A stretch of 49,471 nt of DNA, counting the filler, from Basidiobolus ranarum (lineage: Eukaryota), in the NCBI GenBank assembly GCA_040143965.1. It is 2 parts of 2 records of this genome, joined end to end, with 100 filler letters (N's around TTAATTAATTAA, not from the genome) between each part and the next. Parts side by side here need not be neighbours in the genome. Positions count along the whole stretch, not along the records: positions 1 to 24,753 come from JASJQH010007023.1; 1 more part is not named here. One strand, 5' to 3'. Numbering within the stretch: the stretch's first letter is position 1; the number at the start of each line of letters is the position of its first letter. A program made the translations under genes and the position numbers. The notes beneath the pieces were generated by a model. The model saw only the letters and a program-made list of their open reading frames with translations, was not told where the DNA came from and did not search any database. Shown piece by piece: positions 3,455-30,997 of the stretch.

Positions 3455-5463
3455 CTACCAACTGGCCCACTGCCTTTTAAATGTATCAGCTAAGCCCAAC
3501 ATATCTAGGAGTAAAAAACCACCATTAGCTAATGTTGCCAACGAAAAGAGCACAATTAAACCCACCAGTATCGCAATCAGAACGGGCTCGTGTTTGTAAG
3601 GCCTCTGGTATCCATTCATTAATCTTTGAGATTCTAGCCTCGTGGTTGGGATGTGTGCTGAGATATTGTGGGGGACCACCTTTTTCTGCTTTGCTCATTC
3701 TCTGCAAAATACAAAAGATCCTCTTCAGAAAGATTTCTTCGTTAAAACTATGGAATTAGCACCAACCTCCCACATACGAACCGCTGTATTTTACCGGTAA
3801 ATAGAAGGTTAGATTTGGTTGTCTTGGAGGAGAATTAATACTAAAAATACCTTCATAAGGATCATAGCATGCTTGTGCCATGAGTTGAAGGCTACGCGAA
3901 TACAGGTTAGCAGATGCAGGTTAGCTGATACACACACTTTACCAAGAGTGCATTGAAATTACCCGATCTAAACCTCGAATCAGTTAGTTGGAATTGGATG
4001 GATTGTAGGATTTGTGATAGAAGTACCATGTCAGCTTCAACTTCGCATTTACGGCTAAAAGGCAGGACAACCCCTAGAAAAATCCATTTCCTTTTCATCA
4101 AACAAGGAACCTCACGTGCTAGAGATCAGAGAGAATTACCTAATTCCAGGAATAGTCTATTGAACGCATAGGGCATGCCAAGCGCTACATCCAGAAAGAG
4201 TTGGAACTTGATTCCAGATTGGTTAGGAACTCAAATCAAGGAATAGATCAAAGAATCTATGAAACATACCATCAAAAGGATCTTCATGTGTGACATTTTC
4301 TCGGCAGAGTGTCTAATACAGTCAGATTATTACGATGACATAAATGCAACAGTGCTTGTCAATACCTAGCGACTTGATGTGCCACCTAACAGAAATTGAG
4401 TGTCGATTCAATAGAAATGCCAGAAAAACCTACTGCGGTTTACCTCATGTCCTAATACCGCAGCCATACCGTCTTTGTTTTTAACTATAGGAAGGATGCC
4501 CTTTAACATGGTTATTGTTTAAGCTTTGTAAATGTTTCGAGTGGTGTTCTAACTTACTGTAAACACGAAAACTTTGCCGCCTTTGAGGTATCAACGATAA
4601 CGTGTTGAGAATGCTTTTTGTATGTTGAATAGGGAGATAGTCTATAGTACACTACCTGGTAGCACAAAAGCATTTCTCTCTGGAGAATCGATAACGTGTA
4701 TTTCCCAGTTCAGATTGTCCATACCGCATACTATATTCCGAATTAGCAGTGATTTAAGTGGATATGGAAAAAATTAGCAACCTTTGATAATTCGCTCGGC
4801 AACATCTGTAACCCATCTAGAATACTAGACAATATCTAGTTAGTTGTCTACGAATTTAACAGGTTCGAAAAATATAAAGTTACTCTGTGATTAGGCGGGA
4901 GTATTTGGTGGCCATACTAAATTATGAAATTTAGTTAACGAAGCAATTCTACGTGAATACTCTAAGGGTCCATTCCTGTCTGATACAGAAAAGTAATGGA
5001 GTTGTATATAACCTCTTGAATAATCTCTTGATAGGACATTTTGGATAGCTTTTCCTCTTGAGTAGGTGATATATCCATAAAACGACGACGTCCACTTATG
5101 GGTACTGTTTCCAAATGGGCAATATAGTAAGACCCTGCTAAACCACCAAAGACACCTGTACCAATCCAGAACTGTTTTCTATTGTAGAAAGGCTCTTTTT
5201 TGTGGGTTAACAGTTGTTGGAAATGTAGGGGTTGATTCTATGCTCAGGACTAGAAAGAAAAGCGAATACCTCGATTAGATTGAAAGCGCTGATATTGTAC
5301 TTGAGGTCTGAGGATTATTTTATTAGGAAGTCTTCCCCAAGTGTTCCTCCCTATGATATTATAAAGCTCGTTACTTGAGTATAATAAAACTTGTATTCTA
5401 TATGACTACGCTCTGTTTACCTAGATTAATGGGCCCCCGAGTTTTGAACAAATTTCGAAACAT
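3455..5463 (-). CDS. OMA1: Mitochondrial inner-membrane M48 metalloprotease Oma1, many short exons
   Basis: ATG at 5463 (MFRNLFKTRG, presequence-like). Motifs: HLETVPISGRRRFM, NAFVLPGGKVFVFTG, HExxH (GHE|VAH split by an intron), PFSRKCEVEADMIGLQLMAQACYDP, YLSTHP. Stop TAG at 3455-3457. Confidence 0.92.
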
Positions 5464-5805
5464 TCTTTATGCTTCAAAGGCTGGAATACCTACGGTTATT
5501 AATGAAATCGAAATCGTATTCACGATTCTCTTATTTTGTATTAACCGTAACTTTTGCAGTAATCTACGTCACTTGCGAAATCATCCGAGAAAATCTCGAG
5601 CGAATTGAGAAACGCGATTTTCTTACGAAATTTATTATTTATTTAAGCAAAGTATATCAATCTATATATACTTAAAAAAATCCTGGAACAAAAGTGGTCA
5701 CACTATCTTGGTGGAAAATGCAAACAGTTCTAGCAAACTGATCATGGAAGAATATCAATAATTGAACAACAAGTTTTCTATAGTTTCAATCGCTGCCATT
5801 TGTTA

Positions 5806-8800
5806 CTAAAATAGATCTTTCAGTCTTGCTTGAATAGGCGGCGAGAACAACTGGATTATGGCTCGGATTTGTGACATGCTTTCAAAGTCAACCTGGAATT
5901 GGTATTTAATATGATAGCTAAATTTGAGTTAAGAACGCCAAATGGTATTTCCAGATCATATAATCAACATAATAAACACTTAGAAAGGATACAGGAAATC
6001 ATATATTTGCTCCAGTGCCCTGGTGGATGCATTGTCAGGTACGGTCAAAACGGAGGACAGATCTTGCAGAATGTACATCAAATCCATCAAAATCTATTGA
6101 AAATTAAGTAAAGCGTTTATGTAACGAGCATGCGTAACAAAACTAATACCTGATGCAGTAAACGAGGTGATTTCTCCAGTCGGAACAGCGAAGGGCCAAC
6201 AAGTGCACAAATATAAAGCATCTGTGTGTCGGAGGTAACTTGGCCACCTCGAAGAGACATCAAACACTGGTGCATTGTTTCAAATATATCAATACTGCTA
6301 TAGTGGATCATGCTTTGAAATAAAGTCAAAAAAGTGTTTGGTCCATTGATAGTGAAATTGTGATAATTGAACATGTAGTTGTTGAATATATAAGGAAGAG
6401 TGAAGTTTCGAGATGCAGAGGTTGACATCTGTATACCGGATTCACTGAAGCTGTCGTTGAGTTTTACGAACGTCATCGAACTGGATGCTCGAGGCTTTGG
6501 AAATAGTGTTGAGTAAATCATAATTAATATTACAACGTTGTGGTATATGCTAGAAAAGAAAGACTTACAGGGATGGAAACTTCAGATCTTTCAAGCAGAT
6601 ATGAATCAGCCTTCAACAAAACTAAAAGTTCTTCAAAAACGACAGTAACAAACTCCTCATGGGGCAAAGATGCTAATAGCAGGCCAAGAGCATGAAGAAC
6701 AACCGAAGGATAACCGTCACTTTTCCCAGAGTTGCCCATAATTAAGCTATGGAACAATTCCACTATGGTTCTGGCAGGGAGTGGACATGCCAGAATCTCT
6801 ATAGATACAGTCATTAAGGCTTGTAGACTGGGATTAGAGAATTCTCGGAAATGACGCTCAGGCAAGTCAGAATCACTCTTGAAATCGCACTTCTCGGGAG
6901 ACATTGCTAACATAGCATGGTTAATATAATAATAGGAATAGCTACTCAAATCTATACTTTATCTCACCTTCGGCTAGCTTTGTCAAGATCTTTTCAAAGT
7001 AGTTGCTGTCAAACATAAGGGGTGGGATGTCCTGATCAACATACTGCTTAAATTCTTCTGAGAACTGGTACTGTTGGAAATCTGCCAACAAAATCAGATA
7101 TAATTATATAAAACAGATCACATGTATCTACTAATAATTACCGGCAAGTTTCACCAAGAGTTTGGCGATTTCCGGGTCTTTAAGAGCTCCTGATCTATAG
7201 TAATTTTGAAGTGTATCCCGAATAAAGGCCAAAGGAGTTTGATGATAACGGTATAGTTTTTGGAATTTATCGAGTACCAGTTTTAGTAAGTCCGATTGTT
7301 CAAACTCAATGAGTTTTCCAATGGTAATATCCAAGAACGGAATGACCCTAAGGATTAAATTATCATAGTATATAGGCATTGGTGTGGACAGAGCTGGCTT
7401 TAACTCCTCCTTGTTCGAGACATAACCGTTCATGGCGAAGGCCTCGTATTCGAAATATTCCGGAAACTTGTCCAAATACTTAGTCAACTTTTCGTGGAAG
7501 TCATCCTCAACCCAGTAGCGAGGATTGAATTCAAGTGATATCCAAAAAGATAATCGCTCATCAAATTCTGTGGATTCGACAAGAACTTTCTCTAGTAGCT
7601 TGAAATTCAATTGAGTGGTATTTGAATGGCCTCTGGTCAACGCAAAAATCACATGCTCGAAGCTAACCAGTTGGTAAGTCCAGATAAAACTTGTCAGTGT
7701 TTCACAAGCCTACACATGTATACCGTAAATATTGGGAAGATCGGGTATACGAAACGAAGGACTCATTACCTTTTGCAAGTTTTCAACATCTTGATTTTCT
7801 TTTAGAATGTAATCTATCAAATGAAACACGTTTTCTGCAGTCTCACACAAAGGAAATTTGAGGGCGATTCGTCGAATATCTATGTCAGAAAAGCAGAACC
7901 ATTAGCATAAGATTCAATGATATTCAGAATCAAACAGGAAAAACATACGCTCAACAAAAGTAGAATCCAACGCTTTATCCTGAAAAATATTCCACAATAC
8001 GCATAGAAATTGGAGTTGATTCTCTTTTTTAGAGTAGTATTCTAGCAAGCCATCTTCATTTTGTGAATTAATTTCCCCAGTAGTAAAGAGTGCATGTGCT
8101 GAGCATTCCTGAATCATCTTCGACACCTATTTTTCATGGTTAGTGTATATATAAGTAGCAGGTCAATGGATCGATATTACTTGTTCAGAATTGACAGATG
8201 TCTCTTCTATTTCTGTTTGACTCTGATAAAAGGAACGAACAGAGTCGGGGAAATAAGCAAGTGTTTTCTCTGACCACGTTAACGGTTTTCCGTGCAACGA
8301 TTTGAGAGCACTGTGTAGTTTTTCTTGAGAAATATCATCCAACCCCCTACGTAATCTTTAGTATTTGCCTTCTCTTGTATACATTAAGTGCAGCATACCT
8401 AAGTCGGATGATTCTTGCAATAGTCATGACCATTGTTCGAGCTGTGATTTCAGACTCCGGGAACCATACATCTTTATCTCTGGTCGAGTCGGATAAGGTT
8501 TGAATAATATCAAGGTTCGATTGTATCAACTATATGAGTAAAAGAGATTAATAATAGCTAGGAAAACAAATCAAAAAACTCAATCTCTCACTATCAAATT
8601 TAAGGAAAACGACTCTAATATGTGATATATATGATGATGCTCTGTTGAAGTCAGGGAATGCTTTACACAATGAACCAGATTTAAAACGATAGAAGAATAT
8701 TTCAAGAATCTGGGAAGTCTAAAATTGAGCAACTGTAACATGGTAGACTGCCAACGAAGAGTGTGATCAGAAAGACTGGGCCCACCCTCAGCGTGAGTCT

Positions 8801-11709
8801 TCATCGCTTTATCACATCTCTTTAGCCTTTCAAATATCTCTCTCATCATGAGCTCGGCACTAAATTATAAAGTCATAGAAGCATATTAGTACTGATAAAC
8901 ACATGCCAAGTTTAGAACAAAGACCTTACGAGCATGGAGCACTATGCAACAGTTTATATACTACATCAAGTACGTATGGCGAGACACAGTTTGCTTGACC
9001 GGATCCATCCTGGAAACGAGGGCCCGCCTCACTGTCTAACATCATTTTATAGATGAGCTGCAGTAATCTTGAAAAATGGGTTAATACAATGGTTGGAAGC
9101 ACTCCAATCCAATAAATAGACCAAGTACCGTTGCTTTCCATTTATGTTAATAAAGTCCAAGAGCTTATACCCTAGGATGCCGCCTTTAAGGTATGTGTTT
9201 TGAGGGAATCCTAGAGTACCAGTATCCGATTTATTGGGAACCAAGTAGACGTAAAGTGTGTTGGGAACAATATGTTGCCGAAGTTGACTGACCAACGCAA
9301 CCTTATTGATTTCATGGAGTGTTAGGTTTCTGAAGACATCATGCTTAGTAATGTTTGCTATGATGCGATGCTCAAGTTAGTTCTAATGGCTACAACTTGG
9401 ATATATCAACCAGGAATAGGTACCTTTATAATGCGAGGCAAAATAAGTTTGCAAATGGTAACAAACTGTAGCATAACTCATAGCAGATGTCAAGTTTGGA
9501 TGTCGATACTTTAGGTTGGATCTATCGCGAAGGTGTGATTGCTGGTGGCTTAGCTACAAATGATATAAGTTAATAAGGTATAGCGCCACTTTTTAGCATA
9601 GAAATTTAAATTCTCACTGCGCAAGGAAGCGATAAATCTCGGAGATAGAAACCGTCTTGTGAAAGAACCTGTTTTTCATTGTAAAGTTTGACCATTTGAG
9701 ACAAGTAGGTCTCATCATTGGCAAAATCCCTAGCTATCAGATTACCCCCCAGTCTCTCAATATCTATAAAATGGAAGAGTTAAGGAGCTGCTGTGTATAT
9801 AAAATGGAAGATTTACAACAAGTGTGACTGATGCCAAGGATACGAAAAAGTTGCAATAAAAGCCATAAAAGAGAATTGTCTTTGGGGATTTTATCTGAAT
9901 CGATATCTAGAGCATCGTCTGGTCGAACGATTTGAGAAAAATCTGACAATAGATCGTCGAACCCTACAAGGCTGAAATAAAAGGGATTAAATTGTGTACG
10001 CTAGTCAAAATTCGTTGAAACCATCATTTACTCGGAGGATACCAGGCTATATAGCTGGTCAGCAACCTCAATCATACATTCCCAAAAATCGATATTCTCG
10101 GGTACTATCACATCTACTTCCGAGCCACTGCTTTGAGTGGAATCTACACCTGAAGAATAGTTAGCATTAGGGCTAGTCTATATTGTGCTACAATAAAACC
10201 ACTTCAACATCCTCACCTTGCTTTGGCTCATCGAAATGACTAATCTCACGTGCGCGTATGACTAAGTCGCGAATTTTATCAACTATCGCTTTACGAATAA
10301 AATTCCGATCTGTACTATGCCCTTGTTGCGTTAAGATCCCTCGTAAATCCTCTATCGAAGATCTTTGAAAGAGAAGATCTCTCAGATGTGAATACGTGGA
10401 TGTAGCAAAGTTACTACCAATAAATTCATCCTAACTAGTATATTAGTGAATGATACGAGAGCGCGAAAATCGAAAGAAAAGTGAACACGTACAAAATCGT
10501 GTTGAAATATCGTACAGTGTGGCTGATTGGTGACATGCGTATATTCATGACTTCGGCTAAACTGGGAGATAAGTGGCCAAGACGCGTCTAGGTAAAATCC
10601 AGATTACAACAAGCTCTATGTACGTATGTAACTTTAATAGAATTACCAGGCGGTACCAAGATAAAAGCTAGCTGACGCCTCCTTTTACTTAGTGCGTTGA
10701 TAAGTGGTTCGACAAGCCAATGGACATTCTTTACATAATTCCCCTGAACAAAATTCGAATATATATCTGGGAGCTAGAAGAATATTGATTAAGAAGTGTC
10801 ACGTAACCGATTTTCTTAGCTAGGAATTACCTGTTGTATTAGCTCATAATATGAGAGTGAACCAGATACTTTCTCTCCAGATAACGGGAGCATTTGGTCG
10901 AGTAATTCTTTTCCTTTTTCCACACACGAACGCTGGGTTTCGTCAACAACAGTTGGAAGAGTATTGATCTGTTTGAGAACAACTTTGACAAAGTTGATCG
11001 CTATATGGTTTGGTATAAAAATCCTTTGTTTCTCCTCTTTAAGAATATCCAAGATAAAATTCAATATTTGTGTCCATAACTGCGGTTTTTTTATATCAAG
11101 TAAAATAGCAGCCTGCTCATAAATATATGTCGAAGGAATGCTGGAAAGTTTATCTGCGTCCATAATACTACTCTTCAAAAATCCAAACAAAGATATCACA
11201 TATTCACTAGGATAGCTTTCCTTGGCGATAATGTCGAAAATACTTTTCAAACCTTCGCTCTGTAAAGTAATTTATGAGTGTAAACACCCTAAAAAGAAAA
11301 AACATTTTAATGGTAAGATCCGAGCATACCGGGTTGTTGGAAGTTTGTATGGCATTGGTTAAATCGAAATTCAGTTTATCTTGAAATGCTTGCTCTTCAT
11401 CCGTTCTGGTTTGTAAGTCACCTCCATTATGTGTTTTGATTTTTTTTGTCGGAGATTCGAATATACTTTAAACCAAAAAGTAAATACAAAAGAAAGGATG
11501 TAGTACAAAGTAAAAAATATTAGGATAATCTATACCCATAATAGAATTCTTTGGATTCTGAGGCAACTGAACGCTAGAAATTAGGAAATGTTTTTCAAAA
11601 GATCACCTCAGTAAACTTCTTTTGTGGAATGTCGAATGTGTCTTTTAAATACCTTATTTTTAGTGAAGCTCTCTTCAAGGTACTTTTTAACGATCGTGTC
11701 TACCTCCAT
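5806..11709 (-). CDS. MED23: Mediator subunit Med23 (tail module), multi-exon
   Basis: Motifs resemble metazoan MED23 as recalled: YWVEDDFHEKLTKYLDKFPE, MPIYYDNLILRVIPFLDITIGKLIE, LYRYHQTPLAFIRDTL, HFREFSNPSLQALMTVSIEILA, IYDFLYHIKYQF. ATG at 11709 (MEVDTIVKKYL), stop at 5806-5808. Confidence 0.85.
5918..5992 (-). other. U12-type GT-AG intron (last intron of MED23)
   Basis: 5'ss GTATCCTTT, branch TTCTTAAC (5935-5928) about 10 nt from the AG. Splicing restores DFL|YHIKYQF in frame. Confidence 0.88.
9764..9843 (-). other. U12-type GT-AG intron (MED23)
   Basis: 5'ss GTATCCTT, perfect branch TCCTTAAC (9786-9779), 3' TAG. Splicing joins LLQLFH|IERLGG with an open frame. Confidence 0.87.
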
Positions 11710-12045: not shown

Positions 12046-12147
12046 GAAAATAGTGACTGACGAATCTTAGCTTACATTAGAAAATAGTGACTGACGAATC
12101 TTAGCTTACATTAGAAAATAGTGACTGACGAATCTTAGCTTACATTA
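12046..12147. repeat. Perfect tandem repeat, 34 bp x3 (GAAAATAGTGACTGACGAATCTTAGCTTACATTA)
   Basis: Copies start at 12046, 12080 and 12114, with no spacers. Confidence 0.97.
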
Positions 12148-24753: not shown

Positions 24754-24853
24754 NNNNNNNNNNNNNNNNNNNNNNNNNNNNNNNNNNNNNNNNNNNNTTA
24801 ATTAATTAANNNNNNNNNNNNNNNNNNNNNNNNNNNNNNNNNNNNNNNNNNNN
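24754..24853. other. Artificial join: 44 N + TTAATTAATTAA + 44 N
   Basis: Exactly 100 bp, with a palindromic all-frame-stop linker at 24798-24809. Confidence 0.97.

Positions 24854-27771: not shown

Positions 27772-30997
<3,226 letters not shown>

Follow-up and report, generated by a model that had tools for sequence, protein, structure and literature searches.

MED23 and its neighborhood

The window analyzed here (i.e., the whole stretch of 49,471 nucleotides from Basidiobolus ranarum, whose assembly comprises 65 Mb in 13,754 contigs) joins contigs C7023 and C7024 through two runs of N at positions 24754 to 24853; since the contigs are joined there, distances across these runs may not be real. 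The minus strand of C7023 carries a gene whose product scores 244.9 bits against the Pfam Med23 model (cut-off, 25) and matches the human MED23 chains in the PDB (E = 3.5e-38), and we accordingly assign it to Mediator subunit 23 (MED23). Searching with an exon query returned a 100% match to the public B. ranarum protein P0001, which shares one locus tag with a second isoform (P0158, 1471 aa; P0001, 1438 aa). Exact-match threading of P0158 through the window placed 24 exons between 11709 and 5803, separated by 23 introns that range from 52 to 80 nt (Table 1). By homology, the C-terminal HEAT solenoid ends in the last exon, which aligns with the C terminus of Basidiobolus meristosporus P0002.

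Two features flank the gene. Just upstream (12046-12147), a 34-bp unit is present in three perfect tandem copies. Downstream lies an intron-rich gene (about 3500-5370, minus strand) with a HEXXH motif apparently spelled across short introns; by eye it resembles the Oma1/M48 peptidases.

Table 1. Features of the window discussed in the text (positions count along the whole window)
Feature	Position	Strand	Description
MED23 gene	5803..11709	-	24 exons, 1471 aa; Pfam Med23, PDB homology, exon map
Last coding exon	5803..5917	-	Split Leu followed by 37 codons and the stop; exon map
Intron 23 (site B)	5918..5992	-	Last of 23 introns; GT-AG U12-type, 75 nt, phase 2, Leu1435 of DFL|YH
U12 branch site of intron 23	5928..5935	-	TTCTTAAC; 7/8; its final A is 11 nt from the 3' end
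In-frame TAA in intron 23	5980..5982	-	Retention ends the protein at DFLYPF; public isoform P0001
U12 5' splice site of intron 23	5984..5992	-	GTATCCTTT; 9/9 versus consensus; pairs with the 5' end of the genome's own U11
Penultimate exon	5993..6093	-	Ends ...QIYDF-L (2 nt); exon map
Intron 22 (site D)	6094..6149	-	U2-type, phase 0
Intron 20 (site C)	6907..6967	-	U2-type donor GTGAGA, phase 1, Ala1174; exon map
Intron 9 (site A)	9764..9843	-	GT-AG U12-type, 80 nt, phase 1, His448; donor 8/9, branch 8/8
Third minor intron	29902..29980	-	AT-AC U12-type, 79 nt, phase 0, MCM9-like gene; contig C7024

Intron 23 as a minor intron

Introns were scored against the U12 donor and branch consensus sequences and the U12 branch-distance range. 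Only introns 9 and 23 (2 of 23) fit, the best values among the other 21 MED23 introns being 7/9 for the donor and 6/8 for the branch. Another U12-like string, which would have been the fourth (GTATCCTCC at 10042), proved to be exonic and was discarded, intron 8 beginning at 10031. Intron 23 starts at 5992 with the junction CT|GTATCCTTTC and shows the extended 5' splice site RTATCCTTT at all nine positions; TTCTTAAC at 5935-5928 is followed by 10 nt (TCAAATTTAG) up to the AG ending at 5918, i.e., a TCCTTAAC-like branch near the 3' end with no long pyrimidine tract. The next exon picks up as C TAT CAT, and removal of this GT-AG intron restores the conserved frame. The P0158 model is spliced exactly at 5992-5918 and continues as DFL-YH-IKY to the normal end, and the C terminus of B. 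meristosporus P0002 matches the spliced product. The pattern GTATCCTT-N30-60-YCTTAAC-N6-14-AG has two matches in the window versus one in 100 first-order Markov resamplings of it; the signals are not due to chance. The second U12-type intron that had been proposed for MED23, with its full donor, near-complete branch, and 10-nt spacing to the AG, is therefore real and, as judged from these signals, confirmed in its class.

One of the two public isoform models counts against this reading. P0001 retains intron 23, and it is the expected product of retention since the TAA follows at 5982-5980. From this it could be argued that 5992-5918 mostly stays unspliced, that the main MED23 product stops at DFLYPF, the frame running straight through to the early stop, and that the downstream exon is a relic. 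However, the 37 downstream codons form an open frame that is conserved with B. meristosporus, their YHIKY motif is conserved with animals, the matching human residues are folded, and P0158 uses the exon, so we consider a mostly unspliced intron very improbable.

The U11/U12 di-snRNP recognizes the donor and the branch site together, and U6atac, U4atac, and U5 complete the reaction. Candidates for all four minor snRNAs were found in the genome of B. ranarum itself, two of them below the Rfam cut-off: U11 (84.6 bits; cut-off, 39), U6atac (66.3 bits; cut-off, 33), a full-length U12 candidate (49.4 bits, E = 2.9e-7; cut-off, 53), and a full-length U4atac candidate (G000:C640:9904-10032, L074; 46.6 bits, E = 2.1e-5; cut-off, 53). 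For B. meristosporus, likewise, the parts of Olthof 2024 available to us report only a putative divergent U4atac (PMC11347168). These RNAs are able to pair with the signals of intron 23, the predicted duplexes being -7.0 kcal/mol between the donor and the 5' end of U11 and -10.0 kcal/mol between the branch and the AGUAAGGA region of the U12 candidate; the U2-type intron 20, which is a single comparison intron and thus a weak control, pairs less strongly (U11, -3.5 kcal/mol; U12, -7.9 kcal/mol). In the proposed reaction, U11 would pair with the donor of intron 23 and U12 with its branch site as the U11/U12 di-snRNP, and U6atac would then replace U11. The branch A would attack G5992, and ligation at the AG 11 nt downstream would re-form DFL|YH and bring back the final 37 residues.

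The class of intron is well represented in the genome. The genome-wide donor count that had been suggested as a check gave 58 matches to a tight GT-AG pattern versus 5 to a reversed control, and a tight AT-AC pattern gave 69 versus 24. The 122 distinct donors obtained from both patterns are partly chance matches, yet they represent a lower bound for the true set. A looser pattern (254 versus 125 in the control) was too noisy, and the tight patterns were used instead.

These counts bear on the idea that intron 23, although real and old, is a minor-like or hybrid intron that the major spliceosome excises in whole or in part. Its donor begins with GTAT, as do those of several U2 introns of MED23, its branch shows TT in place of the consensus TC, the string TTAAC recurs in U2 introns 10, 12, and 20, and the U12 candidate scores under the Rfam cut-off; since the U2 donors of MED23 are degenerate, the major spliceosome might also use intron 23. 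On the other hand, the donor fits the consensus at 9/9 positions versus at most 7/9 in the 21 U2 introns, the TT variant retains its pairing with U12 by way of a G-U pair and recurs in an animal locus (L024), and the class is abundant in the genome by the tight-pattern counts. We therefore regard use of the major spliceosome as improbable, and splicing of intron 23 in vivo by the minor spliceosome is the reading that we infer.

The initial annotation had also counted three minor introns in the window, and this number holds: MED23 introns 9 and 23 are joined by the AT-AC intron at 29980-29902, whose removal leaves the MCM9-like frame open. It had further called this density notable. Three introns per 49 kb exceed the 0.19 expected for 250 evenly spaced introns (p about 0.001), but the window was chosen post hoc among 347 windows of this genome, and two of the three share one gene while the third sits on the other contig. 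Same-strand pairs of tight-pattern matches within 5 kb numbered six versus 0.57 expected from even spacing, MED23 being one of them; the six, which probably represent genes with two minor introns, lie on G000 contigs C10, C80, C209, C790, C7260, and C7023. For B. meristosporus, 249 (0.554%; Larue & Roy 2023, PMC10639083) and 237 (0.5%; Olthof 2024, PMC11347168) minor introns have been published. Given these totals of about 240 to 250 and the six close pairs here, the density appears ordinary for the genus, and the claim that it is remarkable does not stand. Genes with at least two minor introns have been reviewed as a small fraction of minor-intron genes (PMC8199999), and the arrangement in MED23 is uncommon but known. 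The B. meristosporus complement agrees with our observations in genus, class, and signals, and U11 and U6atac genes are listed for it (PMC10639083, PMC11347168), but it belongs to a different species. MED23 is absent from those portions of the main texts of Larue & Roy 2023 and Olthof 2024 that were available, and the accessible part of the supplement of the former has no MED23 entry (PMC10639083); per-intron databases may already catalogue the orthologous intron.

Intron positions in animals, fungi, and plants

For the comparison with animals, metagenomic sequences were scanned with an alignment built from 12 pieces of the MED23 C terminus, which yielded 69 loci; the low-scoring rows of a first scan (mostly below about 30 bits) were spurious and left out, and the counts given here come from a stricter scan. 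Animal loci were placed by their nearest named protein only. The codon of site B was reached in 27 of the 69 loci and not in 42. Nine of these 27 animal-type loci carry an intron at site B, in every case with a GTATCCTT donor, an AG acceptor, and phase 2, and with a length of 205 to 1532 nt; eight of the nine have a branch-like motif 18 to 19 nt from the intron end. The nine collapse to five distinct sequences (L024/L028, L030/L031, L033, L035, and L039/L041/L046), of which three are nearest to arthropods and one to nemertean and brachiopod proteins, and one is about equidistant (44 to 49%) from the named bilaterians. These introns share codon, phase 2, GT-AG ends, and the GTATCCTT donor with Basidiobolus intron 23, although they are longer than its 75 nt. 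No description of an invertebrate U12 intron at site B was found in the literature searched.

Animals and a fungus thus have a U12 intron that interrupts one and the same codon in the same phase, and since several invertebrate animals share codon, phase, and class with Basidiobolus, site B must be regarded as very old. The proposal that a shared position would place the intron before the animal-fungal split is borne out through the five invertebrate-type sequences, but most likely not as a position shared with human. The remaining 18 of the 27 loci are uninterrupted at site B: 7 are intron-bearing elsewhere, 3 are intronless within long contigs, and 8 are short and possibly transcripts. The presence of other introns in the seven makes them true absences, and together with the apparent absence from vertebrates they could speak for independent gains of U12 introns at this codon in animals and fungi, as could the similarity of the exon context TAT CA to the donor TATCC and the occasional minor-intron gain argued for by Olthof 2024 (PMC11347168). 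Against this, codon, phase, and class coincide in five distinct animal sequences and Basidiobolus, positions C and D are likewise shared, indicating that MED23 keeps old introns, and Larue & Roy 2023 report patchy loss as the norm (PMC10639083). Independent gain therefore seems extremely improbable to us, and we hold with high confidence that intron 23 is truly of the GT-AG U12 type and descends from an intron of the animal-fungal ancestor.

At site B, the evidence from other fungi consists of proteins, and the fungal and vertebrate claims draw on mispredicted proteins and exon numbering. A joint alignment places the site B Leu in a single column throughout its 14 rows from fungi, ichthyosporeans, and animals (one with Phe) and in two plant rows, and the register can be checked at site D, which aligns with an inferred mammalian exon boundary (E|I). 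Two proteins of one cluster differ as DFL-YV (P0082) and DFF-YH (P0157), which may reflect a U2-type donor at site B. In P0118 (49% like Funneliformis), 35 extra residues stand between DFL and HYV, beginning with YLF and containing SSLT..NR, and this insert is compatible with a phase-2 intron having a U12 branch site. The Paraglomus model ends at DFL, and that of Diversispora eburnea skips site B. One of the 123 animal proteins examined (P0143, 85 to 98% like sea-urchin MED23) reads through as DFLYPL. None of 122 plant proteins, taken as the top-scoring intact models, showed the read-through signature, and literature searches for an Arabidopsis gene with U12 and for conserved intron positions in Mediator gave no matches.

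Human MED23, which the initial annotation had described as a minor-intron gene, is listed as such in Table S6 of Olthof 2024; as far as Tables S6 and S8 were available, they give a single MED23 minor intron (chr6:131593172-131594098, ENST00000368068), which responded in two of nine minor-spliceosome perturbation datasets (Table S6, PMC11347168). This intron and that of mouse match Basidiobolus intron 23 in gene and class but differ in position, which is most likely site C (Thr1078, phase 1; the vertebrate sequences seen have AT-AC ends there), about 260 residues upstream of site B. The placement is indirect. Human Thr1078 aligns with Ala1174 of the window, and site C coincides in codon and phase with the U12 intron found in vertebrates and in many invertebrates. 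The DNA of a fish-like locus (L022) reads A|ATATCCTTC at the site C codon, and the Tupaia, Alosa, and Branchiostoma models read through site C as LVD-NIL and a spider model as LVD-SIL. In Table S8, the B. meristosporus entry for the MED23 intron is "protein_ortholog" (PMC11347168), which we read as no matching intron. With the orca protein as a stand-in, the 40% flank rule of Olthof would about pass at site B (9/20) and fail at site C (3/20), so that the missing match is expected for a human intron at C and not at B. Intron 23 is accordingly most likely not the orthologue of the human minor intron, the vertebrate U12 signal lying at C.

In the vertebrate evidence examined, nothing pointed to a U12 intron at site B. 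The available part of a clinical paper on MED23 places a donor after c.3939, i.e., 15 codons beyond the site B Leu, and the Tupaia model repeats a 44-residue block from the site D boundary to the c.3939 donor, the pattern expected if one exon spanned DFLYH. Site B therefore appears to lack an intron in mammals, as far as such models and exon numbering can indicate.

Four of the five animal groups bearing an intron at B have a U12 donor at C, and the fifth (L030/L031) has GTAAGC. Three fungal-type fragments read through site C in ways that fit U2 donors, and conversion is generally taken to proceed from minor to major (Larue & Roy 2023, PMC10639083, in the part available). Intron 20 is thus likely a minor-to-major conversion. 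It still contains a branch-like ATATTAAC, located 14 nt from the end of the intron. Drifted site C donors occur in the animal loci L058, L063, L064, L066, L067, and L048 (GTATCCC, GTATCCG, GTATCTTT, and GTATCCA) and possibly form a series of minor-major intermediates. Six fish models (P0191, P0195, P0197-P0199, and P0230) have LVSPMAG or LASPMAG in place of LVDTMAG at site C; these are probably annotation errors around the AT-AC intron.

At site A, the models of the Glomeromycota Acaulospora and Ambispora read through as RIL, which indicates that the intron is of U12 type in that group too. The site A motif was covered in 9 of the 69 animal loci, 3 of them intron-bearing, and none had an intron there; since the alignment has a four-residue gap at this point, site A can only be described as not seen in animals.

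History of the introns and intron retention

By these positions, MED23 of the opisthokont ancestor had a U12 intron at B and probably a second one at C. Both persist in several invertebrates, and vertebrates retain C, apparently without B; Basidiobolus still has B, together with a U2-type intron at C and a further U12 intron at A in common with Glomeromycota. We infer both the vertebrate loss of B and the direction of the change at C. MED23 alone would then combine a retained position (B) with a probable conversion from minor to major (C) and a position restricted to fungi (A), which makes it a useful small test case for loss versus conversion, and intron 23 adds a minor intron position that is well supported and predates the split between animals and fungi. 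Since vertebrates seem to have lost site B, a human-centered orthology table cannot show it. No paper with MED23 introns as its subject was found by title, and the MIDB, IAOD, and intronIC tables may hold intron 23. The minor introns of Basidiobolus, their age, and their patchy loss have all been published, and no general view is altered; MED23 is a tidy instance of reciprocal loss and conversion and not a surprising one.

Intron 23 also accounts for the truncated MED23 models in databases. If it were kept, translation would stop four codons in, and the end of the C-terminal HEAT solenoid would be lost. The site B Leu corresponds to human residue 1298, within the folded C-HEAT region (residues 1035-1334; PMC6107663). 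Patient variants listed for human MED23 include a stop at Arg1330; since retention of intron 23 cuts the protein earlier, it would probably damage MED23.

Slow minor splicing as a rate limit is a standard idea (PMC8199999). A bolder and rather unlikely reading is that at least three U12 positions existed in MED23 across opisthokonts and were reciprocally lost or converted in lineages rich in minor introns, with at least one kept by selection, and that the retained-intron isoform of Basidiobolus is regulated and escapes decay. The escape would follow from a stop with no downstream junction. If this were true, selection would be maintaining control of MED23 by the minor spliceosome, and there would be a regulated form of MED23 without the end of the C-terminal solenoid, as P0001 suggests.
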